Shown piece by piece: positions 208-61,150 of a stretch of DNA of 64,000 nt. The stretch is taken from assembly GCA_964188305.1 (NCBI GenBank), contig OZ076894.1; one strand, written 5' to 3'. Both the position numbers and the translations under genes were made by a program. Position 1 is the stretch's first letter; each line of letters opens with the position of its first letter. Below the pieces are notes generated by a model. It was not told the DNA's origin. It made no database searches and was given only the letters and a program-made list of their open reading frames with translations. The DNA comes from Podarcis bocagei (Eukaryota).

Positions 208-1104
208 GTGGGAGTTAAGCCGAAGAACACATTGAGGGCCACAGGGTAGTCACCCTTGTCTTAAGGCACCATAATGCCTTCTACAGTTCAGCCAGCTGTG
301 ACACTCTTCAAGAAGCTTTTCAACCTGGCCTGCTTTCCTCCCTGATCCTTTCCGTAAGGGTTGGTCGGGCTGTGTTGTACAGCTTGCCATTTCCCTCCCC
401 TTTCACAATGCCTGCAAAAACTGATGCAGCAGACTGCGTGTGCGGGATGCTCAGCATGACCTGGTATAGACTTCCCACCAAAAACATTGCTGCAGCCAGA
501 AAGAAAAAGGAAAGGAAAGGTGGGAGCAGGAAAGGATGTAATATAAGTACACAGATATTATTCAGGCCCACCAACACAGCTACAGGCCAAAGCCTTCTGC
601 TAACAATTATTCAGTCCATTTAGCGTATTCGGTTTTTGCAGGCAAAGGCAATCTATACCAGCTAATCCCAGTATTTCTTGGCTTAATTCAGTGTTGATTT
701 TAAGCTAGCAGCTTAAAATTTGTCACAGACCAACGACGCCAAAGTTCCTCTCCTTTAGCAAAGCTGTTTCATATTCTCTTTCGCTGTAAGAATTTAGGCT
801 GTGAAATAGTTGCACTTCAAAATAATTAGAGCTTCCTTTGGGTAGTGACAGCAACCACTTAGTTGACAAATTAAACATAGAACATTAACAAGGCATAGCA
901 GCTACCACCAAAACACTCCATTGCTTCGGGAACTAGTTACGGTATATCCTACATTGGAGGAGAAACGACAGGAAATGCTCATGCATGGTAACTATAGATA
1001 AAGCATAAAATTAGAAAATTGGCAGGAGCCTTCAGTCCAAAGAGTCTTCAACGCCCGAAGAGCATGCACCATCCAGGCCCATGGTTCAGCTTGTTAAAGC
1101 TTAT

Positions 1105-1300
1105 TTGTGCTGATTATCTGGATCCATTTCAGCCTGGCTCCAGGCCCAATTATGGAACAGAAATGGCTGAGGTTGCCCTGGTAGATGACATACACTGGTG
1201 ACCTGGGGAGCACTACCTTGCTAGTTCTCCTGGAGCTCTCAGCAGCTTTCAGTATCATCAACCATGGTCTCTCTTTGGATCGTCTGTCAGGGTTGCATTT
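1105..1300 (+). mobile_element. Decayed L2-clade LINE RT fragment (continues ~2190-2340)
   Basis: Translates DYLDPFQPGSRPNYGTEMAEVALVDD and LLVLLELSAAFSIINH, homologous to the L2 RT at 7292. The downstream piece RVPHGPRLSPILF..MKLL matches the GVPQGSVLSPILF motif. Confidence 0.7.
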
Positions 1301-1534
1301 GGCAAAAGCAAACCCCCTTGTTGCAATGAGAACCAATCACAGAAATATCAACACAACAGGTAGGCTAATAACTGTTAAAGCATATGTAATAGAATAATGA
1401 TATCATTCAAAAAGTAGAAATAAATCTATTAGAGTTCATATATACAATGTAACAGAGGAGTGGCACAGAACGTCAAGCCATGTGTTCAAGATAGGTGTCA
1501 AAGGTCAGTCTCACAATGGTTATTCAAAGCTTTC

Positions 1535-1928
1535 GTGTGTTTTTTTACAATAATATTTATTAGTTTTCAATAGACATAACAAACAAAAAAGAATATACAA
1601 CAACACAACAACATAACAACCACAACAGTATAGAAATAAAAAAGAGGAAAGAATAACAGACCTACCTAAACAAAACAAACAAAAAAACCCCACAAAAACC
1701 AAAACAAAAAAAGAATCAATCAATTAATTAGAATCCGTTTTCATAAACATTTTAGTTGACTTCCTCTAATCTCCTCCATCTGAATTTCCTCTAAAATTGA
1801 ATGTAGCAGTTTCCAAATTCATTATTTCATAGAACAATATTACAGTTATATTCCACTTTCTTTACCTTTCTTATAGTGCATTTTCTTAATTATACATATA
1901 AATCTAATTTTGTCCTAGGCCTAATTGG
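1535..1928 (-). mobile_element. 5'-truncated L1-like LINE 3' end with 14-bp TSD
   Basis: Direct repeat TATTCAAAGCTTTC at 1521-1534 and 1929-1942. The minus strand has a T-rich 3' UTR and AATAAA near the left end. Confidence 0.6.
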
Positions 1929-4639: not shown

Positions 4640-5783
4640 AGTTAGATGAGAGATCTAAGGCTTGGGCAAGCGCAAGCTAGGACACTGAACCAAGAAGCGA
4701 AGGACAGGGCAGGTATAGCATTTAGAATGAAAGGCAGCTGGAGTTCTGAGCTTGAACAAGCAAGCAGGCACTCCTTCTTAGGGGGCTGGCTAGGTGAGGT
4801 TTGTGTGCTCTGGCTCTCCATGCCTGAGGAAATGGAGACAAGATGGAAACTGGTTCGGCATGAGATTTACTCCCAGCGGCCTTCCCTGAAAGGAGAGGCT
4901 TCTATGTAAAAAAGGTGCTGGAGAAGATGAGGGAGGCATGCCTAGTGTGCTGGGCCCGGGGGCAACCTGAGTAATGCAGTTCCAAATCCAAGGGTTCCGC
5001 GAGGAGTCAGTCCGACAGGGCCAAGGCAGGACACGAGGCAGGAAACCAGGCAAGGTCAGCTACAGGATCAGAGGCAGGTTCTGGCAAACAGCAACATTGC
5101 TCCCACAACCTGGGGCGGGGTCCAGCAGCCTTTTATCTCTGTTGGGGTAACGGCCAGTCCTGATCCCTCGGTGACTCACCTCCCTGTCTCGCCCAAAGGC
5201 GAGCACTCCTCCTGTGAGTACTCAGGTTTCTCCTTCTCTCAGTCTCTGCAGCTCGGGAGACGTCGGTGGGTTACTAGACCCAGAGGCCGTCTCAGCCTCT
5301 CCTTACCCAATTGGTAGTGGAGCAGCTGTAAGTGATGGCCCAGCTGAAGGCAATGAGGTAATCCCCACATCTGGAGCCAGGGCAGGCTCAGGCCCCTGAC
5401 TCTGCCCAGCTGGTACTTGTTGCAGGGGAACCTGTGCAGAGTGGGGCTCTTCAGAATCAGGCCCCAGACTAGGTTCAGATGCCGCCTGGGGCAAAGGATC
5501 TGGTACGGACTGAGACTCCTTTGGCTTTGAGTCCGAGCCCAAGTCCCAGGCCATCACACCTAGCAGGTAGGTAACAGGAGGCACTTCTGAAAGTTTGTCA
5601 GAGCCTCCTTTGTAGAGCCGATCTCCAACTCCTAATCCGTTAGGACTCTCCCAAGGATGAGACATCTCTTATGGTTCAGAATCTGCAATCCTCACCGACT
5701 GCAACCCACCCCAGGGTCCTCCAGATTGAGTTCCTCAGGTTCCTCCCATTCCTCCTTAGGGGCCTGACCATCTCCACCATGAC
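4640..5783 (-). mobile_element. Older LTR-like relic that hosts family A copy 1 (left boundary uncertain)
   Basis: The minus strand begins TGTCATGG at 5783 and reads an acidic EEWEEPEELNLEDPG stretch, like the element at 13445-14371. It is interrupted at the CCTAG site. Confidence 0.35.
4946..5558 (-). mobile_element. Solo-LTR-like element, family A copy 1, 5-bp TSD CCTAG
   Basis: TGTG...CACA termini; CCTAG at 4941-4945 and 5559-5563; homologous to 48052-48523 and 48971-49570; GATAAAAG TATA-like box on the minus strand at ~5130-5137. Confidence 0.8.
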
Positions 5784-12645: not shown

Positions 12646-12994
12646 GGGACACGGGTGGCGCTGTGGGTTGAACCTAGGGCTTGCCAATCAGAAGGTCAGC
12701 GGTTCGAATCCCCGTGACAGGGTGAGCTCCCATTGCTCGGTCCCTACTCCTGCCAACCTAGCAGTTCGAAAGGACGTCAAAGTGCAAGTAGATAAATAGG
12801 TACTGCTCCAGCGGGAAGGTAAAAGGCGTTTCCGTGCGCTGCTCTGGTTCTCCAGAAGCGGCTTAGTCATGCTGGCCACATGACCCAGAAGCTGTACGCC
12901 GGCTCCCTTGGCCAATAAAGCAAGATGAGCACCGCAACCCCAGAGTTGGTCACAACTGGACCTAATGGTCAGGGGTTCTGTTACCTTGACCTTA
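12646..12994 (+). mobile_element. Sauria SINE
   Basis: tRNA-like head GGGACxCGGGTGGCGCTGTGG...GGTTCGAATCC, characteristic body and (ACCTT)n-type tail; near-identical copies elsewhere in the window. Confidence 0.92.
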
Positions 12995-13176
12995 AGCTTA
13001 GGGTTAGGGTTAGAACTGGGGGAAAGTTCCAAGCACATAGGGTAGAAAGAAAGAAAGGGCAATGTATTTTCAGGGCACAAAAGACCTTTAGACGGTGGAG
13101 GCTACAGAGCTGGAAGAGCAGTGTCTGTGTGTCACAGAGCGCACAGCCCATAAACCACACTGTTCAAGCTGGAGTA

Positions 13177-13418
13177 CAGTGGTACCTTGGCTTAAGAACT
13201 TAATTCATTCCAGAGGTCTGTTCTTAACCTGAAACTGTTCTTAACCTGAGGTACCACTTTAGCTTATGGGGCCTTCCGCTGCTGCCACGCCACTGCTGCA
13301 CAATTTCTCTTCTCATCCTGAAGCAAAGTTCTTAACCCAAGGTACTATTTCTGGGTTAGCGGAGTCTGTAACCTGGAGTGTCTGTAACCTGAAGTGTCTG
13401 TAACCCGAGGTACCACTG
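13177..13418. mobile_element. Tc1/pogo (Tigger-like) MITE, family M1
   Basis: TIR CAGTGGTACC...GGTACCACTG, TA TSD on both sides; near-identical copies at 19260, 28685, 54947, 60347. Confidence 0.9.
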
Positions 13419-13444
13419 TAAACACCATCACAGCCTTGGCTGAT

Positions 13445-18870: not shown

Positions 18871-19259
18871 TCTAGACAATATCCCTCTCCCCTCCCCTCC
18901 TCCCTTGGTGGTTGAAATTTCAAGTCTGGGAAGGATTTAACTGAGAGGAGTCCTAGTTTAAATTTTTTTTAATAAGCAACCAGGAGTCTCTTCCTCTCTC
19001 AGCCTAGCATAGCTCTGTGAAGCCGCCCTGTGGATTCATTCTCTTTGCCCAACTCCAGCTCTCTTGCAACCCTTTTGCAAGGGCTTGCTGGGAAACAAAG
19101 TCCAAACGTGGAAGTGGAAGACAGGCATCAATGCCCATCAACTTATTTTTTTTTGGGGGGGGGGGAGGTGTGCCTCAAATATTTTATGTGGGGTGTGTGT
19201 GAAGGGACTTGGGTTCCTAGGAGTTGTTGCCTATAGCCGTGCCAGATACATTGATGGTA

Positions 19260-19501
19260 CAGTGGTACCTCGGGTTAAGTACTTAATTCGTTACAGAGCT
19301 CCGTTCTTAACCTGAAACTGTTCTTAACCTGAAGCACCACTTTAGCTAATGGGGCGTCCCGCTGCTGCCACGCCACCGGAGCACGATTTCTGTTCTCATC
19401 CTGAAGCAAAGTTCTTAACCCGAGGTACTATTTCTGGGTTAGCGGAGTCTGTAACCTGAAGCATCTGTAACCTGAAGCGTATGTAACCTGAGGTACCACT
19501 G
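19260..19501. mobile_element. Tc1/pogo MITE M1
   Basis: CAGTGGTACCTC TIRs, TA TSD. Confidence 0.92.
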
Positions 19502-20593
19502 TATTCGACTTCTCAGAGCTGGCCTTGAACTTTTCCCTCTGAGCTCCTATTCAAAACTGTAGCTTCCTAGGCCCTAAGCAGCATCTGCCTTGCTCTACCC
19601 TTTCTCTCTGTGTGTAGCTACTGCCTTTCCTTGCTCCCCTGCAGACCTATGTGATTCCTGCATTGCAGGAGGTTGACCCTTCCGACTCTACAGTTGACAA
19701 TTCTTGTGCAGCAAAGCTCCTCACAAGTCCAGTGCCTCACCTTGTTCCTGGCTCCTTGCATTGCCCTGCTAGATCCTCAGCCCCACCAGCTCCCTCTTCT
19801 ATCTACTTTCTCCCCAGCCTCCTTTTCCGTAGCCGACTTGGGCTCAGCTTCTCAGCCACAGTTGCGTTTTAATTCCTTGCACTGAGCACCTTGGCCTGGC
19901 TCGCTTTCCTGGAAAGACACCCACCCCACCCTATGTCCTGGCAGTAGTGTCTGCCCCCTTGTCTGATTCCCTAGAGGCCCCGATCCTGCAAGAGAGACAC
20001 CAGGCCCTTCCACAGCTTTTTATAAATGTGTGAGCAGATTCAGGTGTTACTTTTGGAACATGCAGGCGTCATTCTTCTGCCTGCAGAATTGTCAATTGGT
20101 TACATATGGGTCTGATCCACCCACAACATTCTGTGGACTTGATAAATATCCACAATTTCACTTGAATCAAGGTTTCAGCACCTCATTTATAAAGACTAAG
20201 CAAATGTGTTTCGCTCTGGACTTTGAGGGAGCCCGACATTTTTATTCTTATTTTATCTTATTTTTTTGCTGTTATGCTGGTTGCTTTAGCCTTACTTTAC
20301 ATCGTTGCTTTCACTCTACCTGTTTTGTTTACCTAGCAACAGCTGTCTGCCGTGTTTTTTGGGTGTGCGTGCATGCAGGGGTGAGCCTTCCCTTCACAAC
20401 TGTGTCACAAAATTTGGTGGCAGAAAAAATTGGAAGCATGGGGCATTCAGCAAGCCACAGACTTCACGAGGGCTGCAAGTGGGCCACCAGTTGGCCATAT
20501 TGGGCTTAGTTAGAATACAGCATCTAGAAAACATCACAGGCCACCCTGCCATGTGCTGTCATTTTCATATTCTCCTACCTGTGTAGAAACCTA

Positions 20594-28832: not shown

Positions 28833-29867
28833 GAAGGTAGCAGCCTAGTTAACCTCGTCTGCCTTTAGATAAAGTTTTAAGTAGTTTTAAGTAGTTTTTC
28901 AAACCCTTTGGGGGTTTATCTTTTAATTCTAATGATTTAGTGGCTGTACTATCTCCTCAACACTGCCTCCGCTTTTCTTAGCATTAGCGTTTTATTGTTT
29001 TATTGTTTTATCACCGGACTCGAGCTTTAGCCTTGCTGCCTTGTCGCACCCCCCGCCGTACTTTGGTGCTGTGGAGCTGAGTAATCTCCTGAAACGAGTG
29101 AGAGGGGAAGGAAAAGAGGCCTGGCCTGACTCCCCCGTCGTGAAGGGACCCCCGTTACTGGGAAAGGAATAACTCAAGGTGGGTGATTGGAAACACCGTA
29201 AAATGGGGTTGAAACAAGCCCCCTTCCGAGTCCTGCCGGAATGAGTAAGAGCGTCTTCAGCAAATTAGGCTGATAAGAGGCGCAGCTTGGAAAAACCCCC
29301 AGCTTCTATCAGCTTCTATCAGTAAAAGGAAACTGGGAGCCGACGGAAGAACTCTCAAGCTTTCCTCCCTTCCTTCCCTTTCCAGCCCCACCAAAACTGC
29401 CTTAATAACTCACGGATAGTATTCCCTCTTGGGACTGATAGTTTCTCTCCCTCGAAGCTCCGGAGCAGCACGCACAAGTGACCTGCAGGAAGGTGGCTGT
29501 TAGACTCTGGAACAGATCCTGAGACCCAAGCACCTTATTAAAACCTACACCCTACAACAGAAGAGCCATTTCTTTCTCCTCTTTTTCCTCTTTGTTCAGC
29601 AAGGCAGTTTTTTTTAATTCCGCTCTTTTACTGCATTAGCGCTTCAACATTTTTATTACTTTTTACCTTTTTACCTCCTGGCACCTTTTTACCTTCTGGT
29701 ACCTATATTTATGCAGAGAAACATATTCAGACTCAGTGCTCGCTGACGAGCTAAGCAGGAGAAAGCTGCAGATACACCCCTACTCTACCACCGGCCCTGC
29801 AAATTAGGAAGAAACACTTGGGGACAACTGGCTCTCTAATTGGAAGACAACTACCCAACTACCCAAC

Positions 29868-31895
29868 ATGGTCCTCACCAGAAAGATATGTAAGGAGTTG
29901 GGTATTTTGCCAGAATCGTCACTCAACCCCCCGGGACCTGGAAAGAGACAAAGTAAAATTATAAATTATTTCCCTAAGAGGGAGGAGCGCATGAGTGAAC
30001 AAACTGAACTAATTATTGATGAAGTCACTCCTCCCCCCCTTACTCATCCTGACTGGTCACACTACTCCAAAGAGTTTCAACAAAACTCTGGAAACACAAG
30101 CTTTCCAAGAAGCTTGGCGCTAGAACTAGCCCTAGCGGAGAAACCTGAGGAAAATGTTTCTGTCATCAATAATCAGCGGCCTCCGGCAGAATTAACAACA
30201 TTCCATCAAGACCAGGCGCCCACTTTTAAGTATACTCAAACTGAACTGAGTGATGGCCTCTTTCAGGTCCACCTCCAAGACATAAATACAGACCTTTCCA
30301 ACATAAAAAATTATTTGACAATAACAAATGGGTTATTGTTGACCCTTGTGGAAAACCTTATCCCTCAACCAAAAGAGACAATAGCAACGGATGCACCCCA
30401 AATGCATAAACCAGTAGGACCTGCGAAGATGAGACAAGCAGTAACAACCAAGAAATTACAAAAAAATAGACCAAAAGCCAGGGAAAAGAAAACTAAGAAC
30501 ATTAAAACAACAAGGAAAATAAAGACAAGTCGACATAACCAATGGCAGAAATTATTCAAACTACTTCCATCGGACCCAAACAAATCTGCTGTACGAGATA
30601 AAAAAGAGAAAGGCAAGAAGGGGAAAAAGAAGTCATCGCCACAGCTAATGGCTAAGGAGGTATCTCCGAACCGGAGTTTAGAACTAAATGGGAGGATGGA
30701 AGCAACGCCCCAGAGCCCTGATAATAGGTCACTCAGTGAACTTGACATTGGGGGTGAAGCGGTACCTAACAATGAAGGCAGCGAACCACCTAGCAAACTG
30801 AGAAATGGGGACAATGCAACGCTCAATCGCGATGACAACACTATACAAGATGAGCAAGCCTTTACTCAGACAAGATGCTGGAAGCTGATCTTAAATCCCC
30901 AAAAATTGGTATTTACAAACTTCCCAAAACCAAAGGGCTTTCTTACAGGGAAAGATCGAAGAATGAGCTCCTTGAACATTCTGAATGATATACTGCCAGG
31001 CGCAGTAAGGCCAAATGATATTACTTCTGTAGATTATTTGCATCATGATGGCTGTTCTGTGAGAGCAATGATCACATTTAGAGACCTGAACCTGGCCAAG
31101 TTTATTTACAGATCAAGATATATATTCTTAAAGGCCCAGATACAAATTCTCAGATTTTTTGAAAATAAGGCACCACTGAATCCCCTTCTGGAAGCTAAGC
31201 CCGCAAACCTTAGTAAGGAGAAACAACCTCCCAAAACCCAGCCTGGTCCCCAGAAACAAGTGCCTCTAAACCTAAAAAGGAAAGACGTTCACCTGCAAGA
31301 TCCACAATTCCAAGCGAACGAAGATGAGGACCCCTTCTCTGTGGAAGAAAATACCTTAATCAGGCAATTTTGCCAATTTCCATCTTCAATACAAACTGAA
31401 ATATTAGAAAGATTAGACTTGCTAAGAATTAAGCTGGCTGGGAGAGATATAAATAAGGAAATCAATGTGGCCGCCCACAAAAAGGACCAGACTCTCTTTA
31501 ATTTGAACTCTATACAAGAACAAAACCCGGCGGCCTGTCGGCCACGTTACCTTCAGACAATGGCTGAGATTAATCTGCTCCCAATCAAGGAGGCCCAGTA
31601 CACCGAAGAGTACACTACATCACCTCCAATAGGGAGATCCATCCCCAAGGTGAACTCACCAGGCTCTTGGGACAAACTGAGGTACCTAGATGAGGCAGAG
31701 TTAGGCCACAATCAAGTCCCGGAAAAACACCTACAGAAAGAGATAACATACTTCAAAGGCCCGGTGACCACTAATGTCAGTATTCAACACTTACCAGCCG
31801 AAGCTATAGAACATTTGGCCAGTTTGCCATGCCCGGAAAACAATGGGCCGGCTCATAAAAGTGTAATCCCTAAAAGTTCCTTGGGAAATAATTGA
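29868..31895 (+). CDS. LINE ORF1 protein (675 aa): putative coiled coil, Lys-rich region, RRM/CTD-like domain
   Basis: Uninterrupted ORF between the 5' UTR and ORF2. Heptad-like LQDINTDLSNIKNYL; KLVFTNFP...RAMITFRD...IQILRFF resembles the ORF1p RRM-CTD pattern (inference). Confidence 0.85.
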   Translation: MVLTRKICKELGILPESSLNPPGPGKRQSKIINYFPKREERMSEQTELIIDEVTPPPLTHPDWSHYSKEFQQNSGNTSFPRSLALELALAEKPEENVSVINNQRPPAELTTFHQDQAPTFKYTQTELSDGLFQVHLQDINTDLSNIKNYLTITNGLLLTLVENLIPQPKETIATDAPQMHKPVGPAKMRQAVTTKKLQKNRPKAREKKTKNIKTTRKIKTSRHNQWQKLFKLLPSDPNKSAVRDKKEKGKKGKKKSSPQLMAKEVSPNRSLELNGRMEATPQSPDNRSLSELDIGGEAVPNNEGSEPPSKLRNGDNATLNRDDNTIQDEQAFTQTRCWKLILNPQKLVFTNFPKPKGFLTGKDRRMSSLNILNDILPGAVRPNDITSVDYLHHDGCSVRAMITFRDLNLAKFIYRSRYIFLKAQIQILRFFENKAPLNPLLEAKPANLSKEKQPPKTQPGPQKQVPLNLKRKDVHLQDPQFQANEDEDPFSVEENTLIRQFCQFPSSIQTEILERLDLLRIKLAGRDINKEINVAAHKKDQTLFNLNSIQEQNPAACRPRYLQTMAEINLLPIKEAQYTEEYTTSPPIGRSIPKVNSPGSWDKLRYLDEAELGHNQVPEKHLQKEITYFKGPVTTNVSIQHLPAEAIEHLASLPCPENNGPAHKSVIPKSSLGNN

Positions 31896-34800
31896 CAAAG
31901 ATCAGACCAGAGGCAAACACCAGCCGGCTCCCTATCTCCGCGGAAATTCGACACCATTAGAAACAAACAGGCTCAATCCTTACCTACAAACCAAGCAAAA
32001 GCAGTTCTTTCCCTGAAAGGCGCATCCAACCCACCCCAGAGCCTTAAAATTGTCTCCTGGAATGTTAACGGCTGGGCGACAAAGCAAATGGATCCTGAGG
32101 CAATAAACTTTATCTCTTCTTTTGACATTGTGTGCCTCCAAGAGACCTGGTCCCAACAAAGTATCACTCTCCCATATTATTGTTCCTTTAGCTCCTGTGC
32201 TCGCAAACTAGCTAACAGGGGTCGCCCTCAAGTTGGCCTCGCCTGTCTTATCTCAACCAGCTTATCCCTCACTATCTGCGAGGAACTTAAATCTTCCCCT
32301 TACTTTCTCACTATAAAGATCCACCTTCCAAAGACCAAAAGCCCATGGTTGATAACTACAGTATATCTGCCTCCAGCAATTAATGATTCCGACCGTAATG
32401 AAAGGTGGTCTGAACTTTCGTCTTGGCTTCATGACCTTCAAACAACTAACCCAGGACTTCCTCAAATCCTCTTAGGTGACTTTAATGCAAGAATAGGTCC
32501 CAACGACGATGCTATATTATCTTCCGCAGCACTTCTGGACAATCCCCTGCAGCACCCCTGGGGATATAGATGCTCTCTTGATCCCATAACAAATGCGTCG
32601 GGGAGGCTGTTGGCCCAATTGGCCATCGAAAACGATCTTTGCATTGCAAATGGCAACGTCACTCCCTTGTCCTCGCAGCAGTTAACGTGCATTTCTTCCC
32701 GGGGGACCAGTGTTGTCGACTACATTCTATTGACGCCGGGGCTATTCTCAATTTCTACAAAAATGGAAGTGGCTGAATATTTTGGTGGTGACCACCTTCC
32801 ATTGACTTTAATGTTAAGCCTAATAGAGCCATTCTCAGTCCCCTCGAACTATAGTTCCACCGTACAAAGCTACCCTGTATATAAAACAAAGAAATGGACA
32901 AGCCTCAGCTCCTCTCTTGCCCTGGACATACAAAAATCACTTGATATGCCTACAGTTCTTTCTGACTCAATTCCGCCCGCTGACCAATACCGGAAATTAA
33001 TTGATGCTTTTTCAACAACTTACATAACCATTACCTCGCCTACCCACCAACGCTTCTTCTCCGAATCACCCTGGTTTGACAAGGAATGTAAAGTCCTAAG
33101 AAGGCGAATTAGGAAAATGGTCAGAATCATCAAATTTTCCAACGACCCCCAAACCCGTGCAGAGCTTCTAGTTACTAAAAGGACATACAGAAACATGATT
33201 CATTGCAAGAAACAGCAACACATCCTTGAGGCTTGGTCCACTCTTCGTTCAGCTGTAGAGAGGCATGACTCCCGCTCCTTTTGGCGCTTAGTTAGGCCTT
33301 CGGCACCACCCAATTCAGCTATCCTGATTTCCGCTGACGAATGGATCGCTTATTATTCGGCCAGTTTCGCTTCTCCAAATAATCTTACAGATCACCTTCA
33401 ATCCCCGTCGGACCTCTGTTCCCGTTCTCCTAGCTCCACCTCCTCAGTAAATTTTACCTCAACCCGCATCTTCAACATCATAATGTCCATGCGTAGGAAT
33501 AAGGCCCCCGGCCCAGACATGGTCCCGTTGGACCTTTTCCTGACTGATCCTCTTTGGTGGAGTGAACAGCTGACTTCTGTATTCACCGCTATCTCCTCCG
33601 CGTTAGACATCCCCGACTCCTGGAGAGAAGCTACAATAGTCCCGATTTTCAAAGGCGGCCAGCCAAACATCCCTAGGAACTATCGCCCCATCAGCTTACT
33701 ATCTATTCCGGGGAAAATATTTGCTGCTGTCTTACTGGAAGAACTTCTTTCATGGGTCCATGAGAGAAACATTCTACCGCCAGAACAGATTGGCTTCCGG
33801 AAGTCAGCATCAACCATGGACCACTGTCTAACTCTTTATCACCTTGCCAGTAAATACACTGCACCAAGGCAAGGCCACCTGTTTGCCGCTTTCATGGACC
33901 TGGAGGCCGCCTTTGATTCCATTCCTAGACAGAGATTATGGTCCAAACTTGCCCATTTGGGAATTGATCCACACCTCCTTTCCCTAATTATTTCCCTTTA
34001 TTCAAACACCACAGCTCGCGTTCGAATTGGTCCCAATGGCTACCTTACCACCCCATTCCCAACGGCCAGGGGCGTCCGACAAGGTTGTCTCTTGGCCCCT
34101 TTACTGTTTAATCTTTATCTTCATGACGCCCTTTCCCCTTTGAAGCTAGCAACTAAGTACCCTCCTCACTTAGCAGGTCACCCCGTTGCTTCCCTTTTCT
34201 ATGCGGATGATGCCGTCATCTTATCCAGAACAGCTGCGGACCTAGCAAATGCAGTTAATGCATTTATCGCCTATTGTAAGGTGGAAGCTCTTAATATTAA
34301 TTATAAAAAATCGAAAGTTCTCCACTTCACTCGTTCCCGCAAACTCAAGCTGGAGCCGCTTAAGATCACAGGTGGCTACTTAGAAAAGGTAAAAGCCTTT
34401 AAATATCTAGGCTTAATATTTACTTATAATCTCTCCTGGACCACCCATCTACAATCTGCCTCTCTTGCTGAAACTACAACCTCTAATGCCATTGTCCAAT
34501 TTTATCACCAGAAGGGCGGCAAACACCTTCCAGCAGCAATTCAAATGTTTAATGCCAAAGTTGTCCCTAAACTATTATATGGCTGCGAAGTATGGACTAC
34601 AGCAATATCAGGTAACTTGGATCGCCCACTTCACATGTTTCTGAGATCTCTTTCCGGCGTCCCAAGATGTGTCTCAGGTGCAGCCTTACGTCTTGAGTTC
34701 GCCCAGCCCTCAATTGTAAAACGAGCATGGAGTCGAGCCATTTCCTACAGCTCCCACCTACTACCATCGGATGCTCGAATCAGAGGTGGTTTCTCCAATC

Positions 34801-35405
34801 TGATCCTAAGAGATACTCATAATTCTCCTTGGAAAACTACAATTAATCTCAAATTCCGCTCTCTTCTCAATTTGAACCGCAAAACTGTTTTTAATTTAGA
34901 GTGTATAAGCCCGGTAGCCCTACCTCTAATCAAAAAGAAGCTGCAGCAACTTGACTTCTCTAACACAGCTTCCCATGCAAGAGGGCCGTGTTCAGGCTTA
35001 GCCCTAGCTATTCCACCCCCTGAAGGGATCCCTCTATACTGCTTTACAATTCCTTCGGAGGCTAAACGAAGGGCCTTTACCTGTGCCCGTCTCAACTCTT
35101 TTCCTACAGCAGTTCTGTCGGGTCGTTACTCCAGAGTCCCCAGCGCAAATAGAACATGCTCCTGCAATGACACGGTTCTGGAGACTATGGAACATGTAAT
35201 GCTCTTCTGTCCCAACTGGACAGATGAAAGATCTCGGTTCCTAACCCCTCTCGTGAACAAGCTTCATCTCCCAATCCAGCCTTGGATAGTGTCCCTTCTT
35301 CTGCAGGATTCTGACTGTTGGATTACCGAGATGACAGCTAATTTCCTGCTTAGTGTGATGAAGAGGAAAGCGGCACCAACTCCTTCCTCAATACCACAGA
35401 TGTAG
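31896..35405 (+). CDS. LINE ORF2: APE endonuclease + reverse transcriptase + C-terminal zinc-binding motif (1169 codons open; first ATG only at 32088)
   Basis: APE motifs SWNVNG, CLQETW, VYLPP, GDFNAR, VDYI, GDHLP. RT motifs KAPGPD, YRPISLL, QIGFR, FMDLEAAFD, GVRQGC, YADD, FKYLG. C-terminal CSC..H...C. Confidence 0.95.
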   Translation, partial: QRSDQRQTPAGSLSPRKFDTIRNKQAQSLPTNQAKAVLSLKGASNPPQSLKIVSWNVNGWATKQMDPEAINFISSFDIVCLQETWSQQSITLPYYCSFSSCARKLANRGRPQVGLACLISTSLSLTICEELKSSPYFLTIKIHLPKTKSPWLITTVYLPPAINDSDRNERWSELSSWLHDLQTTNPGLPQILLGDFNARIGPNDDAILSSAALLDNPLQHPWGYRCSLDPITNASGRLLAQLAIENDLCIANGNVTPLSSQQLTCISSRGTSVVDYILLTPGLFSISTKMEVAEYFGGDHLPLTLMLSLIEPFSVPSNYSSTVQSYPVYKTKKWTSLSSSLALDIQKSLDMPTVLSDSIPPADQYRKLIDAFSTTYITITSPTHQRFFSESPWFDKECKVLRRRIRKMVRIIKFSNDPQTRAELLVTKRTYRNMIHCKKQQHILEAWSTLRSAVERHDSRSFWRLVRPSAPPNSAILISADEWIAYYSASFASPNNLTDHLQSPSDLCSRSPSSTSSVNFTSTRIFNIIMSMRRNKAPGPDMVPLDLFLTDPLWWSEQLTSVFTAISSALDIPDSWREATIVPIFKGGQPNIPRNYRPISLLSIPGKIFAAVLLEELLSWVHERNILPPEQIGFRKSASTMDHCLTLYHLASKYTAPRQGHLFAAFMDLEAAFDSIPRQRLWSKLAHLGIDPHLLSLIISLYSNTTARVRIGPNGYLTTPFPTARGVRQGCLLAPLLFNLYLHDALSPLKLATKYPPHLAGHPVASLFYADDAVILSRTAADLANAVNAFIAYCKVEALNINYKKSKVLHFTRSRKLKLEPLKITGGYLEKVKAFKYLGLIFTYNLSWTTHLQSASLAETTTSNAIVQFYHQKGGKHLPAAIQMFNAKVVPKLLYGCEVWTTAISGNLDRPLHMFLRSLSGVPRCVSGAALRLEFAQPSIVKRAWSRAISYSSHLLPSDARIRGGFSNLILRDTHNSPWKTTINLKFRSLLNLNRKTVFNLECISPVALPLIKKKLQQLDFSNTASHARGPCSGLALAIPPPEGIPLYCFTIPSEAKRRAFTCARLNSFPTAVLSGRYSRVPSANRTCSCNDTVLETMEHVMLFCPNWTDERSRFLTPLVNKLHLPIQPWIVSLLLQDSDCWITEMTANFLLSVMKRKAAPTPSSIPQM

Positions 35406-37803: not shown

Positions 37804-38154
37804 AAAGGTAAAGGGACCCCTGACCATTAGGTCCAGTCGTGGCCGACTCTGGGGTTGCAGCGCTCATCTCGCTCTATTGGCCAAGGGAGCCGGCGTACAG
37901 CTTCCGGGTCATGTGGCCAGCATGACTAAGCCGCTTCTGGCGAACCAGAGCAGCGCACGGAAACGCCGTTTACCTTCCCGCTGGAGCGGTACCTATTTAT
38001 CTACTTGCACTTTGAGATGCTTTTAAACTGCTAGGTTGGCAGCAGCAGGGACCAAGCAACAGGAGCTCACCCCATCACGGGGATTCGAACCGCCGACCTT
38101 CTGATTGGCAAGCCCTAGGCTCTGTGGTTTAACCCACAGTGTCACCCCCGTCCC
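37804..38154 (-). mobile_element. Sauria SINE
   Basis: Reverse complement of the 12646 copy; GAATCTA repeated at ~37798 and 38161. Confidence 0.92.
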
Positions 38155-42069: not shown

Positions 42070-42424
42070 GGTAAAAGGTAACGGGACCCCTGACCATTAG
42101 GTCCAGTCATGGCCGACTCTGGGGTTGCGGCGCTCATCTCGCTTTATTGGCCGAGGGAGCCGGCGTACAGCTTCCGGGTCATGTGGCCAGCATGACTAAG
42201 CCACTTCTGGTGAACCAGAGCAGTGCACGGAAACATCATTTACCTTCCCGCCAGAGCAGTACCTATTTATCTACTTGCATTTAGACATGCTTTCAAACTG
42301 CTAGGTTGGCAGGAGCAGGGACCGAGCAACGGGAGCTCACCCCGTTGTGGGGATTCGAACCGCTGACCTTCTGATCGGCAAGTCCTAGGCTCTGTGGTTT
42401 AACCCACAGCACCACCCACGTCCC
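42070..42424 (-). mobile_element. Sauria SINE
   Basis: Full-length reverse copy; imperfect TSD TATG(G/T)GGCAG. Confidence 0.92.
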
Positions 42425-43334: not shown

Positions 43335-43687
43335 AGGACGCGGGTGGCACTGTGGGTTAAACCACAGAGCCTAGGAGTTGCCGATCAGAAGGTCGGCAAT
43401 TCAAATCCCCGTGACGGGGTGAGCTCCCGTTGTTCGGTTCCTGCTCCTGCCCATCTAGCAGTTCGAAAGCATGTCAAAGTGCAAGTGGATAAATAGGTAC
43501 CGCTCCAGTGGGAAGGTAAACAGTGTTTCCGTGTGCTGCTCTGGTTCACCAGAAGCGGCTTAGTCATGCTGGCCACATGACCCAGAAGCTGTACGCCGGC
43601 TCCCTCAGCCAATAAAGTGAGATGAGTGCCGCAACCCCAGAGTCGGCCACGACTGGACCAAATGGTCAGGGGTCCCTTTACCTTACC
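43335..43687 (+). mobile_element. Sauria SINE
   Basis: Full-length copy with TTTACCTTACC tail. Confidence 0.92.
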
Positions 43688-47659: not shown

Positions 47660-47895
47660 TTCACAGCAGTGACCCGAGGAGAAGTGACCGCTGGGAAGAT
47701 GAAACACCATGGTGCATCTGCAGCAGAACCGGACGCCTTCATCTGCCCTAGCTGCAATAGAACATGTCTCTTCTGTATCGGTCTCTACAACCGCAGCAGG
47801 TGCTGTAACTCTCCAATGGTTTGACTTTACCCCCGAAGGCGCACTCTTCCATTGTCTCCCAAGACAGACGGGTGCCAACAGCAACAACAAAACAG
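47660..47895 (+). mobile_element. RTE LINE 3' end (non-BovB)
   Basis: FICPSCNRTCL..IGLY zinc-finger-like C-terminus and (CAA)-rich tail. Confidence 0.65.
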
Positions 47896-48051
47896 GAGAA
47901 CAACAATTGGGAGTGCAGTCATGCAAATGCTGTGGCCAGGGAGGGACTAACTTATCAGAAATGCCACCATAGGCACCATCCGGTAGGCACTCTCGACACA
48001 TCTGCCTCCGCAGCAAAACAGGGAGTTGCCTGCAAGTTTCAGAATCACTAG

Positions 48052-48523
48052 GAACTCTGGCAGAAGAGCAGGACAGGGTGCAGGCTACCAACAATGTTGC
48101 TCCCGCAACCTGGGACTGGGGCTGGCTAGCTTTTATCTGCCCCAAGGCATAGGGTGGCCCCGGTCCACAGGTGACTCGCCTCTCCTGGCCTGGAGGCGAG
48201 GACTACTGCAGGAACTTAGTTCCCTCCGCCTCTCTGCCCTTAGCCTCTGTAGCTCAGGAGAGGCTGGAGGGTTACTGGACCCAGAGGCAACCTCCTCCTC
48301 CCCTGATGGGGCTGAGAGTGGAGAACCTGCAGGCAATGGGTCCTCGATCACTTCAGGAGCCAGAGCAGACTCAGCTGATGCCTGCACCTGAGGATACAGC
48401 ACAGGTGAGGACCCTTCAGGCTCAAGCCCCATCCCCAGCTCAGCTGGCTCTGGAGGCGGGGACTCCTGTGCAGGCTGGGATCCCTCAGTTTCAGCCTCCG
48501 AGTCCGAATCCCAGGACATCACA
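48052..48523 (-). mobile_element. Family A LTR-like copy 2 (one end truncated), flanked by ~200-bp direct duplication
   Basis: Homologous to 48971-49570; flanks 47850-48051 and 48524-48731 are near-identical direct repeats. Confidence 0.85.
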
Positions 48524-48970
48524 CATTGTCTCCCAAGACAGACGGGTGCCAACAGCAACAACAAAACAGGAGAACAACAATTGGGAGTGCAGTCATGCAA
48601 ATGCTGTGGCCAGAGAGGGGCTAAGGAGACACTTATCAGAAATTCCACCATAGGACCATCCGGTAGGCACTCTCGACGCATCTGCCTCCGCAGCAAAACA
48701 GGGAGTTGCCTGGAAGTTTCAGAATCACTAGAAACCAGCAAATTTAATTAGTGGTCTCATGTGAACACTGGGAAAACAGCAATGCCGCACCTGCCAGGAT
48801 GAAGTCTGATTAGCGGATCGAGAGAGGAGATACAAATTCACCAAAAGAGAGACCCAGATGTGAATTATCTTCAAAATGTAATTTCACTGAAATGACGGAA
48901 GCCCCATTCCGGACACGACAGTTTTGCACTCATTGTCTAATTAATTAAGTTGAAAGGTTGGCAGCATGAG

Positions 48971-49570
48971 TGTGCTGGCCCGGGGGCTAACCGAGAGGCG
49001 AGGTCCGAGTCCAGTCCGAGGTCAATGGTGCGGTATGGAGGCTGTCCGTCAAAGCTGTAGCTGGGTCCAAGGCGGGTGGGGTCAGGAACTCTGGCAGAAG
49101 AGCAGGACAGGGTGCAGGCAGGAACAGGCTACCAACAACGTTGCTCCCACAACCTGGGACTGTGGCTGGCTGGCTTTTATCTGCCCCGAGGCATAGGGCG
49201 GCCCCAGTCCACAGGTGACTCACCTCTCCTGGCCTGGAGGCGAGCACTCCTCCTGCGGGAACTTAGTTCCCTCTGCCTCTCTGCCCTGAGCCTCTGCAGC
49301 TCAGGAGAGGCTGGAGGGTTACTGGACCCAAAGGCAACCTCACCTTCCCCTGACGGGGCTGAGAGTGGAGCACCTGCAGGCAATGGGTCCTCCATCCCCT
49401 CAGGAGCCAGAGCAGACTCAGCTGGTGCCTGCACCTGAGGATCCAGCACAGGTAAGGACCCTTCAAGCTCAAGCCCCAGCCCCGGCTGAGCTGGTTCTGG
49501 AGTCGGGGACTCCTGTGCAGGCTGGGATTCCTCAGGTTCAGCCTCCGAGTCCGAATCCCAGGCCATCACA
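48971..49570 (-). mobile_element. Family A LTR-like copy 3, flanked by ~130-bp direct duplication
   Basis: TGTG...CACA termini; flanks 48840-48969 and 49575-49705 are direct repeats. Confidence 0.85.
49177..49566 (-). CDS. Putative LTR-encoded small acidic/Pro-rich protein with RRSARL motif (129 aa)
   Basis: Open from the ATG at element nt 5 to a TAA inside GATAAAAG. Frame, start and stop positions are shared with copies 1 and 2. Confidence 0.45.
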   Translation of the reverse strand: MAWDSDSEAEPEESQPAQESPTPEPAQPGLGLELEGSLPVLDPQVQAPAESALAPEGMEDPLPAGAPLSAPSGEGEVAFGSSNPPASPELQRLRAERQRELSSRRRSARLQARRGESPVDWGRPMPRGR

Positions 49571-50468
49571 CACTACCAAAAAGAGAGACCCAGATGTGAA
49601 TTATCTTCAAAATGTAATTTCACTGAAATAACGGAAGCCCCATTCCTGACACTACTGCTTTGCACTCATTGTCTAATTAATTAAGTGGAGAGGTTGGCAG
49701 CATGACTTTGCTTCCCCTTTTCCAAGTCTGCCTTTTCAGGCAAACTTTCCAACCTCTACAAGGCCCACGTCAAGGGCATACGTTTGGGCAAAGTGAAATG
49801 ATATTTCCCCCCCTTTTTTTACACGAAGCTGAAAGAGAATAGTGCTGGGAATTCATCTTTAGTTTCAACGTTGAATCTGATCTTTTGGTTGCATGACTGA
49901 CCACCTTATTATCCCCTCTGCTGAACAAGGTCCCGTCGACACAGGGAGTCCCAGGCCCATAGGCCAAAAACAAACACAGCCATTGTACGGCATGGTATCT
50001 CCTGTCAAGAAAATACACAGGCATTGACAACCATTGCGTCCAAAGCCTGGGAGTTCTGCTGGAGAGGACATGCTTGTCTATCAATCCCACCGTTTAGTGT
50101 ACATTATGTTGTATCCATTACCAGCTGCTGACAATGATTTCTCTCTCTCTCTCTCTCTCTCTCTTTTACAGTCAGGGAACGAAAAGTAGTGGGAATCGGT
50201 ACAACTGAATTTGATGGGATTTATTTCTGCACAAAAGTGAGCTATACATTTATTATTATGCACATGGATCCATTCAATTCAGAATGCATGGTGCTTTATA
50301 GAATACAAAGCAGCAGGTCCCTGCCCCAAGGAGGTTACAATCTAAAGTTCAACAGCAAGGGAAAGCACAGAGGAAGGAGAAAGAATTGGAAGAAGAGGGA
50401 AGAGCATGCCCTTATTTCAATTATATGTACTTAGGCTTACATCTCTGAAATAAAAATATCCCTTTCCC

Positions 50469-52310: not shown

Positions 52311-54946
52311 CTCTGCCAGCAAAACTCTGGCCTCCTGAATGGCTTTGGGCACTTATGAATTTGATAGAGAGACATTACAAGGATTTTTTTTGTAGCAGGA
52401 ATAGCTCTGGGGCATTTCTGACCCCATCAAATGGGCACCATGGGACCTTTGGAACTAGATGAACCAGCTCGGCAAAGTCTCTCTCGTTAGCCATGGAATT
52501 AGACTGATGTGATAAGTCCTGCAAGCAGCACACATACACAGAGACTGGGAGATGAATGAAAAGAATGGGATGAATAAAATAAGAAGATCTAGAACACCCA
52601 GGAGGCTACTGATTGATCTAAAATATAGAGCCTATATGTTAAGCTGTGCTAGAATCAGACCGTCTGCTTTTTAACTTAAAAAAAAAAAACTGAATTTGTG
52701 GTGATAGTATTCCTGATGTGGAGAGCGACCACTGTTCACCACTGATACGTGATAAGGCTGCCCAAACATGTTACTTGCAAAGAAAAATTTGATGCTTCAC
52801 TAACTTGTGCTGAGCCTGTAATCTATATTCTCCTCAGATGAGAGAATCGTAGTAATTAGGCACACACAGTAGGGTTCTGTGCTGTGATGCAGCAGCTTGC
52901 ATTGCCATAGAGACAGGCCTCATCTGGAACTTCAGTGTGGCTTGTCTCTTCAGCCGTGGGGAATTTCTGCACTGAACTAAGAAAGCAACTAAGAATTACC
53001 TGTCTAGGTAATTCTTTCCTACACATCCCTTTTAGAATGTTGGCAAAAGTATAAAGAACATACTCTTCCACTGGCAGTAACACCTTGACCTGAGTGTATT
53101 CATGACATATGTACCAGTCATGGGGTGCAGCAATGACAAAGCCCCCATCTCTATTAAACTGTAACTGAGTTTAGCCATAAAAGTAGGTTCTAATCTGCCT
53201 TTATATTACTGCAGTTCATGTTCCATCTACACCTTCCGGGTTTACAGGTGTAGTTCTCTTATCTAAAGGAAAATATTAGTTCTCCATCAACACTGCTCTT
53301 TCCTTAGTACAATCCGGCACCTCACGTTGAGTGACTTTGTTTTTATGCAATTGCACACAGTAATTCCACAAGCACTAAGCGCCCCTAATTACAGAACAGG
53401 AAGGAAGGAATCAGCATGCCTGATTATATCTCCTCTTCTATTAAACCCAAGAGGCTGGGACTTACTTAATTTGTTCTTTCCCGAGCCCTCGTTCTCAAGA
53501 TAGGGAAATTAGCCAACGGGAGAAAAGAAAATTCAGGGAGAATCAGACTCTTGTGGAAAGAAAGGCTGGAGGAAAGGGAGGAAAGAGGAGAGGATGCTAC
53601 AAGTAGCTTTTGTTTTGTTTTGCAGGAAATATGGACTATGTGGGACCGGAAGAATGAAAGGCTAGGGTCCTCACATCACCTGTGTGCAAGTGTAGTTCAC
53701 ACCTACATCTGCTGGAAGTGTAGCACAAGAGTCAGAATATAGGTAACAATTACTGCAAGAACTCTGGCATATAGTTCCAATGTGCAAAATCTTATATTTG
53801 AAATAAACACAATACAGCTTAGTCAGAATGGTCATTTCTGTGTGGGGACATTTTGTCCATTAGCCCCTGCCATCATGGTTTCAACTTGCTAATGAACACA
53901 CACACACAGGGAAGAAAATTCAATAAGGCGGCCCCAATTAACTTTTCTTTCCAGTGTGTCCTGTCTCAGTTCAAACCTGTCCAGTGTATCCTGTCTCAAT
54001 TCAAGCCCTGGGACATCTGAGTCAAAACCATCACTCCAGATGATTTTTATTATTATTTTTAGGGGGTTATAAATAAAAAGTCTTGCAGATTCTCCACAGA
54101 GATGACTAGGGAAACATTAGATACACCCATTTATGTGCTTCAGCGCCTTGCTAAATGGACCATGGCCCAACGTGTTTTTGTTAATTCGTTTTAGTTTACA
54201 CGGAATTTTCAAGGTTCTATCTGCATCTCACACTATCCTCCTTCTGTGCCTGGAGTTTTGTCCACATGGAGGAAAGTTTAATGATGCCATGATGAAAGAC
54301 TGACTCGGAGAGTAAAAGGGGAGGGGGAAGGAAAACAAAGCTTTCGCTCCCTCAGAGTCAGAGGACATATTTTTTAATCACTTACTGAACATTGGAACAT
54401 AGCCCATCATTCTGCATGGGGCTATAAAAGTGTCCTTCAAAACACTTACATGTCCTCAAAGAAGATGCCTCTGTTATTATACTCTTGTGGCAGGTTCTCT
54501 CCTTTACTTCAGTGTTTGTAAAGAAATAAAAATTAATGGGCAATGGCTCTCTGGTTAACAAGTGATTTCAAATTTTCTTACAAGCTCCACAAAATATGTA
54601 ATGGTGCATGTTTCAAGTTTTCAGAGGTGTCACTTTGGGGCTGTAACACTTCAGAGTGGTGGCTTACATGAAGGAAAGCGTCTCCATTTTTATTTTTTTA
54701 AAACACCTCTGTGTGGAAATCTTGCATTAGAACAAGTGTTCTGGCTCAGTCTTCTCCTTGAGAAAGTGCTATTTTTCTTAGGACAGGTAGACTCTTCCCT
54801 CTGTTATGGAGGAACACTTTGTGTGGACTCTTGCGCTCTCAAATTCCAAAGCTTTTCAGTCTGCATTTCTTAAGTGACAATTATTTATTAACTAAGGGCA
54901 ATTGTCACGTGGCAAAAAGAGCAGTGCTGGGACCAAAGACATTGTA

Positions 54947-55177
54947 CAGTGGTACCTCGGGTTAAGAACTTAATTCGTTCTGGAGGTCCGTTCTTAATCT
55001 TAAACTGTTCTTAACCTGAGGTACCACTTTAGTTAATGGGGCCTCCCACTGCAGCTGCACAATTTCTGGTCTCATCCTGAAGCAAAGTTCTTAACCCGAG
55101 GTACTATTTCTGGGTTAGCGGAGTCTGTAACCTGAAGCATATGTAACCTGAAGCATCTGTAACCCGAGGTACCACTG
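54947..55177. mobile_element. Tc1/pogo MITE M1
   Basis: CAGTGGTACCTC TIRs, TA TSD. Confidence 0.92.
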
Positions 55178-55332
55178 TACTACCAACTTTACTGTATGCT
55201 TGAGAAACATGGACCACTTATAAACACCATCTCCAACTTCTCGAAAGATTCCATCAATGGTGCCTCCAAAAACTTTTACACAACACTTGGGAAGACTCGC
55301 AAACTAATGTCAGTGTACTGGAAGAAGCAAAG

Positions 55333-55695
55333 GTAAAAAAAGGTAAAGGACCCCAGGATGGTTAAGTCCAGTCAAAGGCGACTTTGGGCTTGCAGCGCTC
55401 ATCTCGATTTCAGGCCGAGGGAGCCGGTGTTTGTCCATAGACAGCATTCCGGGTCATGTGACCAGCATAACTAAACCACTACTGGCACACGGAGGACCAT
55501 GACGAGTGCTAGAGCGCACAAAAATGCCGTTTACCTTCCCGCAGCAGCGGTACCTATTTATCTACTTGCACTGGCGTGCTTTCGAACTGCTAGGTTGGCA
55601 GGAGCTCACCCTGTCGCAGGGATTCAAACCGCCAACCTTCAGATCAGCAAGTCCAAGAGGCTCAGTGGTTTAGACCACTGCGCCACCCACATCCC
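55333..55695 (-). mobile_element. Sauria SINE (older, divergent subfamily)
   Basis: Homologous to the other copies; GGAAGAAGCAAAG repeated on both sides. Confidence 0.85.
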
Positions 55696-58600: not shown

Positions 58601-60346
58601 GACAGCTCCTTTACGAGTGGTACATTGAATCTTGGGTCAACAGCCATTGCAGCTTCCTGCCAACACAAAGCAATAACCCTTCAGGTATTCAGGTTTGGCT
58701 ATACCTTGGCTGCATATGGCCCAGTGCTGAAAGGATGTTAAAAATCCATTTGTTTGTCAACAGCTGTTAAACATGATTGCTAAAAAGAATGTTTATGTTT
58801 AGAGGCAATATGCTTCTGATTATTAGATGCTGGGGGGGGGGGAGAGACACACAAAGAGAGAAAATAGGGAGTGCATCTCCCATTGCGCCTTGCCTGTGAG
58901 CTTCCAGATATGACTAGATAACTGAAACAAAATACTGGATGTACAGAACTTCAGATCTGCAGAGTAAGGAACCATAATGAAGATTGGACAATTAACAAGT
59001 TAGCATAACTAAGGTGCCATTCTTACATCAAAGGACTGAAAGAGTTTAAACTCAAGTATGTCTAGATGAGATTCCGAGATGGTTAGCAAGAAACTAGACC
59101 CCACGTCCAGCAAAGAGGTCCAAGACAAGAGCAGGATCTGAGCAGAAGATTTCAGACTGCTACAGTTCAGAAACTTATGTGATTATAAAGACAAAACAGT
59201 AACTCATAAGAACATTAAACCAACAGTGTAGATACCTCTGCAGCAGGTGGAAAAATAACCCCCAAGATACAGTACTTCACAGTGACTGCAATATGCCAGA
59301 ATGGTCCAAGGCATTCACATCTTTACAAGGGGCTGCAAATGCTTCGCTTAAGATACAGGCTAAACAGACAGACAAATTTCAAGACAGAAAAAGACACAGT
59401 GTGTACGAGAGAGCAGTTTGTTTAAGGTTACTGAGTAGGTACCCATCCAACCTAGAACAGAAAGACATTTCTCCTGAAATTTCCCACCAGCTCCTTGATC
59501 CACGCTGCTGGTTATTTACAAACCAAAGCTTCCTGAGCAATTGCTGTTCTAAAAAGCTGTCTGTGTTTTTAATTTGAGCATCAAAAATATTTGATGTGAC
59601 AAAACAGCCTCCGGAACACCAAATGAGCGTGAAGTATTTTCTTGACTTCACAGAGATGGCCTGGTACTTTTCTCCTTCCCCATTCCTTCCACTTCAACTG
59701 CCATTTCAGGGGGATGGAAGGAGGAAAGACAGTGTACCAAACACTTTCCTTTAGGAAGGAAAATCATCTTGGCAGACTTAGAGGAAGCAAGTGTCCAACG
59801 AGAGGGAAGAACCCCAAGGAGCGCTGGCATTCGGAACAGCTCCTTAGACAGGCATCTGCCACCTGCTGGAGAATTCTTTTTTAAAAAATAGTGAAAGGCA
59901 TGGTACAAACATGCCATGTGTTATAGTTACAAAATATTCGGAAGTATGTAAATCCAGCAACTTGCCCAATGATCAGCACCAAGTTTTCTAATGATCGCTA
60001 TTCCACTCCAGGCCCGCAAATTTGCTAATTGTAGGTTGCTTTCAACTTGGTGGGTCACAAACTGTGAAAGCCAGTTCTTCCCAGTTCATAACTCTAATCT
60101 AACTGTATGGTTCAGCATGTAAACCCTGGCAGCCACATAGCAAACTTTGAAAGAAGAGGAAGAGGTAATCTGATTGATAGAGAACTTCTTCATCGCACAT
60201 TTGGTAGGAACATAGGGAGTTAACCTATACCAGATCTGACTACTGGTCTACCTAGACCACTAATGTCTACTCAGACTGGCAGTAACTTTCCAGGGTCTCA
60301 GGTAGAGGTCTTTTCCATCACCTGTCACCTGATCCTTTTAACTGTA

Positions 60347-60588
60347 CAGTGGTACCTTGGGTTACAGACGCTTCAGGTTACAGATGATTCAGGTTACAGA
60401 CTCTGCTATCCCAGAAATAGTACCTTGGGTTAAGAACTTTGCTTCAGGATGAGAACAGAAATCGTGCTCCTGTGGCATGGTGGCAGCGGGAGGCCCCATT
60501 AGCTAAAGTGGTACCTCGGGTTAAGAACAGTTTCAGGTTAAGAACGGACCTCCAGAACGAATTAAGTTCCTAACCCGAGGTACCACTG
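60347..60588. mobile_element. Tc1/pogo MITE M1, inside an old minus-strand SINE (~60205-60630)
   Basis: CAGTGGTACC TIRs, TA TSD. Confidence 0.92.
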
Positions 60589-61150
60589 TACATGTAAAGC
60601 ATGAACTCTTAAAGTGAGCTATGGTCTCACCACGTGCCTGGTGCCTTGTCTATGAAATACCATGCCACAAAAAAACCCCAGATTAGCACAAACGGATATT
60701 CAGATAGGCTTTAACTGTCACATCGCTCCTCTTCCAGTCTGGCTGGTTTGACTTTGCCTGTCATTGAAACTTAGGCTCATTGTTTGTTTTCCCTTGACAA
60801 AGCATTAGCTGTAAATCAGCAACAAACTTTGGTTAGAGCTTGAAGCAAAGACAAACCACAAGCCCAGGTTTGAATGTTATGCTAAGCCAAACCATGACTT
60901 AAACTCACCACTACAGCAGGACCAGAGGAAGAGCAAAGCACCAACCATCTCCTCTCTGTGATCCTGTGCAACCACCTAAGCCATGATTTGGCACAGCCTT
61001 ATGTGATAACCCAATCAGTGAATTGTCAAGGCTCCAGCATTATGGATTGTGTATCTTAACGGCAATATGACCACCGGAATTTAGAAGAATTTAGAAAGAA
61101 AGAATTTAGAATATAGCTGAAAACTGTGGAGTCAAATCAGAAATGGGATG

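Follow-up and report, generated by a model that had tools for sequence, protein, structure and literature searches.

The window analysed here is a 64,000-nucleotide stretch of Podarcis bocagei DNA (contig OZ076894.1), and it holds three minus-strand copies of one LTR-like repeat, numbered in order of position. The features to which we refer are as follows.

4946..5558, minus strand: copy 1, a solo LTR of the older subfamily C (631 nt class), with TG..CA ends
5196..5213, minus strand: codons for RRSARL in copy 1, not in phase with that copy's ATG
48052..48523, minus strand: copy 2, an LTR of copy 3's subfamily, truncated at 48052 and 92.6% identical to copy 3
48971..49570, minus strand: copy 3, a solo LTR of subfamily B (about 609 nt class), with TG..CA ends and without a 5-bp TSD
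49141..49150, minus strand: self-primer sequence at the U3/R border, where the transcript is predicted to begin; it lies 30 nt past the TATA-like box
49175..49180, minus strand: TATA-like ATAAAA, overlapping the stop codon of copy 3's frame
49177..49566, minus strand: U3 frame of copy 3, 129 codons plus a TAA stop, a remnant of an integrase C-terminal tail beyond the chromodomain
49237..49254, minus strand: RRSARL, the HMGN-like motif of copy 3 (Anolis elements have RRSARI, frog ones RRSPRL)
49264..49323, minus strand: conserved block SNPPASPELQRLRAERQREL, a predicted helix
49336..49566, minus strand: acidic, proline-rich linker, residues 1-77 of copy 3, its length varying between subfamilies

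A preliminary description of this DNA had taken the repeat for a solo LTR, and the TG..CA ends, together with the flanks of other genomic copies, uphold that identity. Genome searches gave 2802 candidates with copy 3 and 1907 with copy 1, 40 being scored for each; copy 3's search supplied 29 further copies for inspection, in which a 5-bp TSD was exact in 22 and had one mismatch in 6, and these copies are therefore ordinary solo LTRs. Copy 1 has its own TSD, CCTAG, at 4941-4945 and 5559-5563. Members of copy 3's subfamily have a median pairwise identity of 93.6%, those of copy 1's subfamily one of 89.7%, and copy 3 is 91.8% identical to a 3' LTR joined to gag/RT/integrase sequence (L232/L233). 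Copies 2 and 3 are flanked by long direct duplications, not 5-bp TSDs (47850-48731, about 200 nt at 97.5%; 48840-49705, 130 nt at 94.6%); aberrant integration, or recombination between two insertions, is a possible origin. The absence of AATAAA downstream of the TATA-like box, also claimed earlier, extends to the family, with A[AT]TAAA in none of the 17 full-length 5' LTRs examined, whereas fish Sushi LTRs are reported to carry AATAAA (PMC3601003).

The frame of copy 3 runs from the ATG at 49566 to the TAA at 49179-49177, within GATAAAAG, and that of copy 2 (48519-48133) has 128 codons without a stop, its motif having degenerated to CSSPRL. In copy 1 the frame is interrupted by a single stop, after codon 83, and by a single frameshift. 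All of this agrees with what had been described. RRSARL is also present in copy 1, at 5196-5213, where it is not in phase with that copy's ATG. In copy 3, residues 1-77 include 17 D/E, 14 P and no K/R, and residues 78-129 include 13 K/R. A single-sequence fold of the chromodomain and tail of a related protein, to be read as a hint only at a mean pLDDT of 50, gave the linker as coil and residues 155-169 as helix. Database comparison of the 129-aa frame yielded a sub-threshold acidic-region match in Pfam and no match to the HMGN family profile at E up to 1. A search of the ESM Atlas gave a best score of 0.80, with no lead. Copy 3 is 60% GC and other frames within it are open for 100-125 codons; an open frame of such length alone is not unusual in DNA of this composition. 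The frame-specific selection and the in-phase link to pol, however, exceed chance.

The element from which this solo LTR derives is a young Ty3/Gypsy retrotransposon of the Tf1/sushi type that carries a chromodomain. We located the parent by searching for a purine tract before the LTR start, which gave a recurring junction at which the LTR's ATG frame extends an upstream frame coding for integrase and a chromodomain. Both LTRs were present in 17 of 20 fetched stretches, most elements being about 5.7 kb long, and the longest frame is a gag-pol of 1564 aa (nt 720-5414, with the 3' LTR starting at 5066) in which Pfam found, in order, gag, protease, RT, RNase H, integrase, SH3 and Chromo. The chromodomain (PF00385, residues 1380-1427, E 8e-15) has HP1 as its best PDB match, and Y, W and Y align with the cage aromatics of HP1; as three aromatic cage residues define group I chromodomains (PMC3605345), this alignment places it in group I. 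About 40 of the best 150 chromodomain matches, counted by eye, lie in an open 1564-aa frame. In full-length copies the LTR pairs without large gaps are 96.5-99.7% identical and, since intact frames are also common, the subfamily of the full-length elements is young. The closest named protein, from Podarcis muralis, is 97% identical.

TG..CA LTRs, a polypurine tract and 5-bp TSDs are all found in the family. A 10-nt sequence immediately following the 5' LTR is complementary to a site inside the LTR in 15 of the 17 full-length copies (8 and 6 nt in the remaining two); such self-priming is a mark of the Tf1/sushi group (PMC6317226). The likeness to this group (V-clade, Sushi-ichi) thus comprises domain order, a chromodomain at the integrase end and a self-priming site in place of the tRNA primer site (PMC6317226). 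Our integrase trees took in fish, frog and fungal relatives, named reference elements such as Sushi-ichi not being among them. We also observed pairs of elements 5065 nt apart, which equals the element minus one LTR, indicating tandem copies with a common LTR (in G000, C19:79413026/79418091, 86882868/86887933 and 94239928/94244993; C9:47505239/47510304); C19 holds many copies of the element.

In the parent, a single gag-pol frame passes through the integrase core, SH3, the chromodomain, the polypurine tract and 108-142 codons of U3. The junction between pol and LTR is in phase in 40 of 47 copies, or in 41 of 52 under a looser pattern that includes one row without the tract. The U3 frame is the C-terminal tail of integrase, read from pol into the 3' LTR, and no separate gene. 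An integrase tail was one of two options raised in the preliminary description and is the one that the full-length elements bear out: the frame continues from pol. Copy 1's subfamily is in phase with the chromodomain in L190; for copy 3's subfamily, continuity with pol rests on homology, because the sole copy found attached to internal sequence is decayed, with its junction out of phase. Most out-of-phase junctions differ in a G run just upstream of the polypurine tract. A loose search for tract-LTR junctions in other families gave hits near the control level, and a chromodomain was present in 0/17 of the stretches fetched from it.

Where the frame lies with respect to the promoter determines which RNA could encode it. 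The self-priming match is 30 nt downstream of ATAAAA, which leads us to place the transcript start near 49150; the stop precedes this predicted start, so the whole frame falls in U3, as had been proposed. Because it is upstream of both the TATA box and the predicted start, transcripts from the promoter of a solo LTR would not include it, and the frame would be carried at the 3' end of full-length RNA and be missing from RNA initiated in a solo LTR. The retroviral nef and sag genes are accessory genes that overlap U3. The Podarcis frame resembles them in being a coding frame inside U3 but, whereas nef and sag are separate genes with their own (spliced) mRNA, it is continuous with pol. In four RNA runs, 40, 46, 135 and 127 reads fell on a full-length copy, most of them 90-99% alike to it and so derived from related copies. 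Internal reads in two bulk runs were nearly all of one strand, LTR depth was higher, and a few reads crossed from unrelated or host DNA into U3. At the low depth of the four runs no start-site pile or splice joint was listed on the full-length copy, and there was no RNA record among the listed holders of the window's sequence.

Selection on the frame was estimated from naturally open real copies (38, 12, 3, 19, 5 and 3 per group, a one-member group being excluded). With protein-guided alignment, net dN/dS between subfamilies was 0.19-0.58 in 15/15 pairs (0.28 between the subfamilies of copies 3 and 1), that is, not near 1, in keeping with the coding role first proposed. The two other sense frames gave values of at least 1.05 and two antisense frames at least 0.93, with one pair undefined; the antisense frame that shares third positions gave 0.27-0.62, as expected. 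In DNA-only alignments U3 mismatches were mostly at third positions in 5/5 pairs, to be set against a control after the stop in which 4/5 pairs had a third-position excess, of similar size in the B-C pair. The four main classes differ in where the motif begins, at 271, 289, 319 or 355 nt from the LTR start, but its phase is kept in each of them, and every one of the three subfamily length differences is divisible by three; the statement that the N-terminal half differs in length yet stays in frame is thus correct. Gaps that are multiples of three made up 21/49 in U3 vs 14/94 after the TATA box by pairwise counting, which is noisy, U3 gaps often being broken into compensating pieces.

Among solo copies of subfamily B, dN/dS was 0.051/0.050, or about 1, and for five open copies of subfamily C it was 0.063/0.124. 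Since purifying selection on the frame is evident between subfamilies, and evolution within solo B is about neutral, selection acted in replicating elements and not in solo LTRs. RRSARL is intact in 52/55 young, 16/29 B and 10/23 C copies; the motif has been lost from 13/29 B copies, and losses are mostly at the fifth-position arginine, a CpG codon. Whether the motif is better conserved as protein than as DNA, a point on which the preliminary description had staked its reading, has an answer in two parts. In the helix block, second codon positions are 97-99% identical between subfamilies and third positions 40-78%, as expected of protein-level conservation. The six motif codons are nearly invariant within the Podarcis genome, silent sites included, and with hardly any silent variation they cannot by themselves show constraint on the protein; constraint at the DNA level could also apply to them.

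Sequences from other genomes bear on the motif. In Anolis elements the tail closes with RRSARIAAK, seven residues short of the stop; these elements group with the Podarcis family at 100/97 in the longer integrase tree and have no resolved grouping in a shorter alignment. BLASTP of the Podarcis against the Anolis tail gave its best alignment only at the motif (7 of 11, E 0.23), the remainder of the tail not aligning. Two elements from the frog Leptobrachium, on another branch of the tree, have RRSPRL. Of 177 tails that follow a chromodomain, 8 contain RRS[AP]R[LI] vs 0.03 by shuffling, for a pattern picked after its matches had been seen and drawn from three lineages only, and the motif was found in 0/61 further single-chromodomain representatives. 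An Anolis protein close to the motif-bearing ones (P0277) is without it, and the Rhineura, Crotalus and Vipera families and a second Podarcis family have an acidic-then-basic tail that is also without it. Among these tails, charge is conserved more widely than the motif. Fish relatives of the Tf1/sushi group have about 40-50 residues past the chromodomain and no motif, in contrast to the 108-142 residues and HMGN-like motif of the Podarcis family. Several of them (P0092, P0100, P0129, P0143, P0149 and others) have RGRPRRR directly after the chromodomain and a tail of 41-48 residues ending in SPEF or SPVF. This RGRPRRR, which we take to be AT-hook-like, may be another kind of chromatin tether in the equivalent position.

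We favor, with a probability of roughly one half, the reading that the frame is the C-terminal tail of a chromodomain Ty3/Gypsy integrase in which RRSARL serves as an HMGN-like arginine anchor, tethering the integration complex to nucleosomes. In HMGN2 and Dsup the last arginine of RRSAR is the acidic-patch anchor (PMC12487698), and RRSARIAT of yeast Dot5 binds the acidic patch (PMC13347269). According to this model, the tail would be made only within the polyprotein from full-length RNA, whose 3' end holds U3, and is assumed to remain on mature integrase. The acidic linker would be a flexible spacer, and the helix with RRSARL would dock on the H2A-H2B acidic patch, the last RRSAR arginine acting as the anchor. 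With the group I chromodomain reading a methylated H3 tail, each nucleosome would be contacted at two points. Reverse transcription would then copy U3 into both LTRs, and recombination would leave solo LTRs in which the frame is a passenger upstream of the promoter. An HMGN-like chromatin tether is plausible, and the Anolis elements add support to it. More tentatively, lizard and some frog chromoviruses may have evolved a two-point nucleosome reader, made up of the chromodomain and an HMGN/Dot5-like anchor encoded in the LTR promoter region, that was gained at least twice.

The same integrase tail could serve a more generic purpose, its basic end being an NLS or a non-specific patch for binding DNA or chromatin, and the HMGN likeness incidental. 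We consider this somewhat unlikely, although a generic import or DNA-binding role is a strong rival because other squamate tails are acidic-then-basic without the motif; P0236, P0311, P0318 and P0030 (all squamate) keep the acidic linker and basic end in other letters, fish elements have RGRPRRR at the same place, and a C-terminal NLS of Ty1 integrase has been published (see references in PMC3605345). Our reasoning for preferring the anchor is that the non-basic S and A and the next aliphatic residue are common to the Podarcis family and Anolis in tails that are otherwise unalignable, and an import signal would not obviously need them.

Departing further from the anchor model, pol might simply lack a stop before U3, the read-through being tolerated and the block kept by elements of the promoter or the RNA that precede the TATA box. 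The scarcity of even silent change in the motif codons within the Podarcis genome would fit, as would the many relatives whose frames stop at or just past the LTR start. We nevertheless think such tolerated read-through improbable in view of (i) the frame-specific dN/dS below 1, (ii) change in the helix block chiefly at third positions, (iii) the three subfamily length differences, each a multiple of three, and (iv) the same motif peptide in Anolis. The preliminary description had leaned toward an LTR-encoded accessory mini-protein spread with every solo LTR and translated from the LTR ATG. That ATG has G at -3 and +4, the frame is open to its natural stop in 19/29 subfamily B copies, a few RNA reads run from host DNA into U3, and automated gene models (P0002-P0004, P0007, P0009) start there. 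A stand-alone function in solo LTRs is nonetheless very improbable, and as a family-wide claim it is largely refuted: the frame is continuous with pol and upstream of the LTR's predicted start site; it decays neutrally in solo copies, with dN/dS about 1 and private indels in subfamily B that are five 1-nt changes; frame and motif are both intact in just 12/29 B and 7/23 C copies, with losses mostly at the CpG codon of the anchor arginine; and related snake families have no Met at the ATG position.

There is precedent for several parts of the favored anchor model. In plant CRM group A and in Beta families, pol is known to extend into the 3' LTR and to carry a targeting segment there (PMC3059260, PMC3605345), and the Podarcis family resembles CRM group A and the Beta Bingo families in this extension (PMC3059260, PMC3605345). 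In CRM, however, the CR motif replaces the chromodomain, whereas in the Podarcis family a group I chromodomain precedes the polypurine tract and a second segment comes from the LTR; CRM also has a plant host and a tRNA-Met primer site, and the Podarcis family a vertebrate host and self-priming. Small targeting segments lie in the integrase C-termini of Ty1 and Tal1 (PMC7459421, PMC11735389). The RRSARL/RRSARIA core is common to HMGN proteins, tardigrade Dsup and yeast Dot5 (PMC12487698, PMC13347269), and RRSARIAT of Dot5 nearly equals the Anolis RRSARIAAK (PMC13347269). The match to HMGN is one of six residues only, as the HMGN core is RRSARLSA and Podarcis RRSARL is followed by QA, KA or RA, not SA. 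HMGN proteins, moreover, stand alone and bind nucleosomes, whereas the Podarcis motif is part of an integrase and a candidate nucleosome binder. Prototype foamy virus Gag engages the acidic patch through an arginine anchor and influences where integration occurs (PMC9040877); there the anchor is in a retroviral Gag, whereas the Podarcis candidate is on integrase and LTR-encoded.

The element type, the extension of pol into the LTR and acidic-patch tethering by a retroelement (foamy virus Gag) are thus already known. In the literature searched, which was largely open-access papers and excluded Repbase and Dfam, we found no retrotransposon integrase reported to bear an HMGN-like motif or an arginine anchor. 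Should the Podarcis motif prove to bind the acidic patch, such a use of an HMGN-like anchor would be absent from that literature. The tail motif also offers a short peptide for testing target choice in vertebrate chromoviruses.

Thousands of solo LTRs carry the frame in well-formed but promoterless form, and gene predictors make false genes of them. Among public gene models (P0002-P0004, P0007, P0009, P0236), some start at the LTR ATG and are joined to gag or host exons, and the chromodomain with its tail appears among them under the name 'cec-1-like'; models of either kind are likely annotation artefacts. Elsewhere in the window, 29808-35405 on the plus strand contains a pair of long open frames, of 695 and 1169 aa, in which motifs resembling those of endonuclease and RT were read by eye; on these motifs it is a near-intact non-LTR retrotransposon. 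Two other interspersed repeat families are also present, one at 12670-12987, 37805-38153, 42075-42423, 43336-43684 and 55338-55657 and the other at 13174-13440, 19257-19523, 54944-55179 and 60344-60591, which we take to be SINE-like and a short element with inverted ends.
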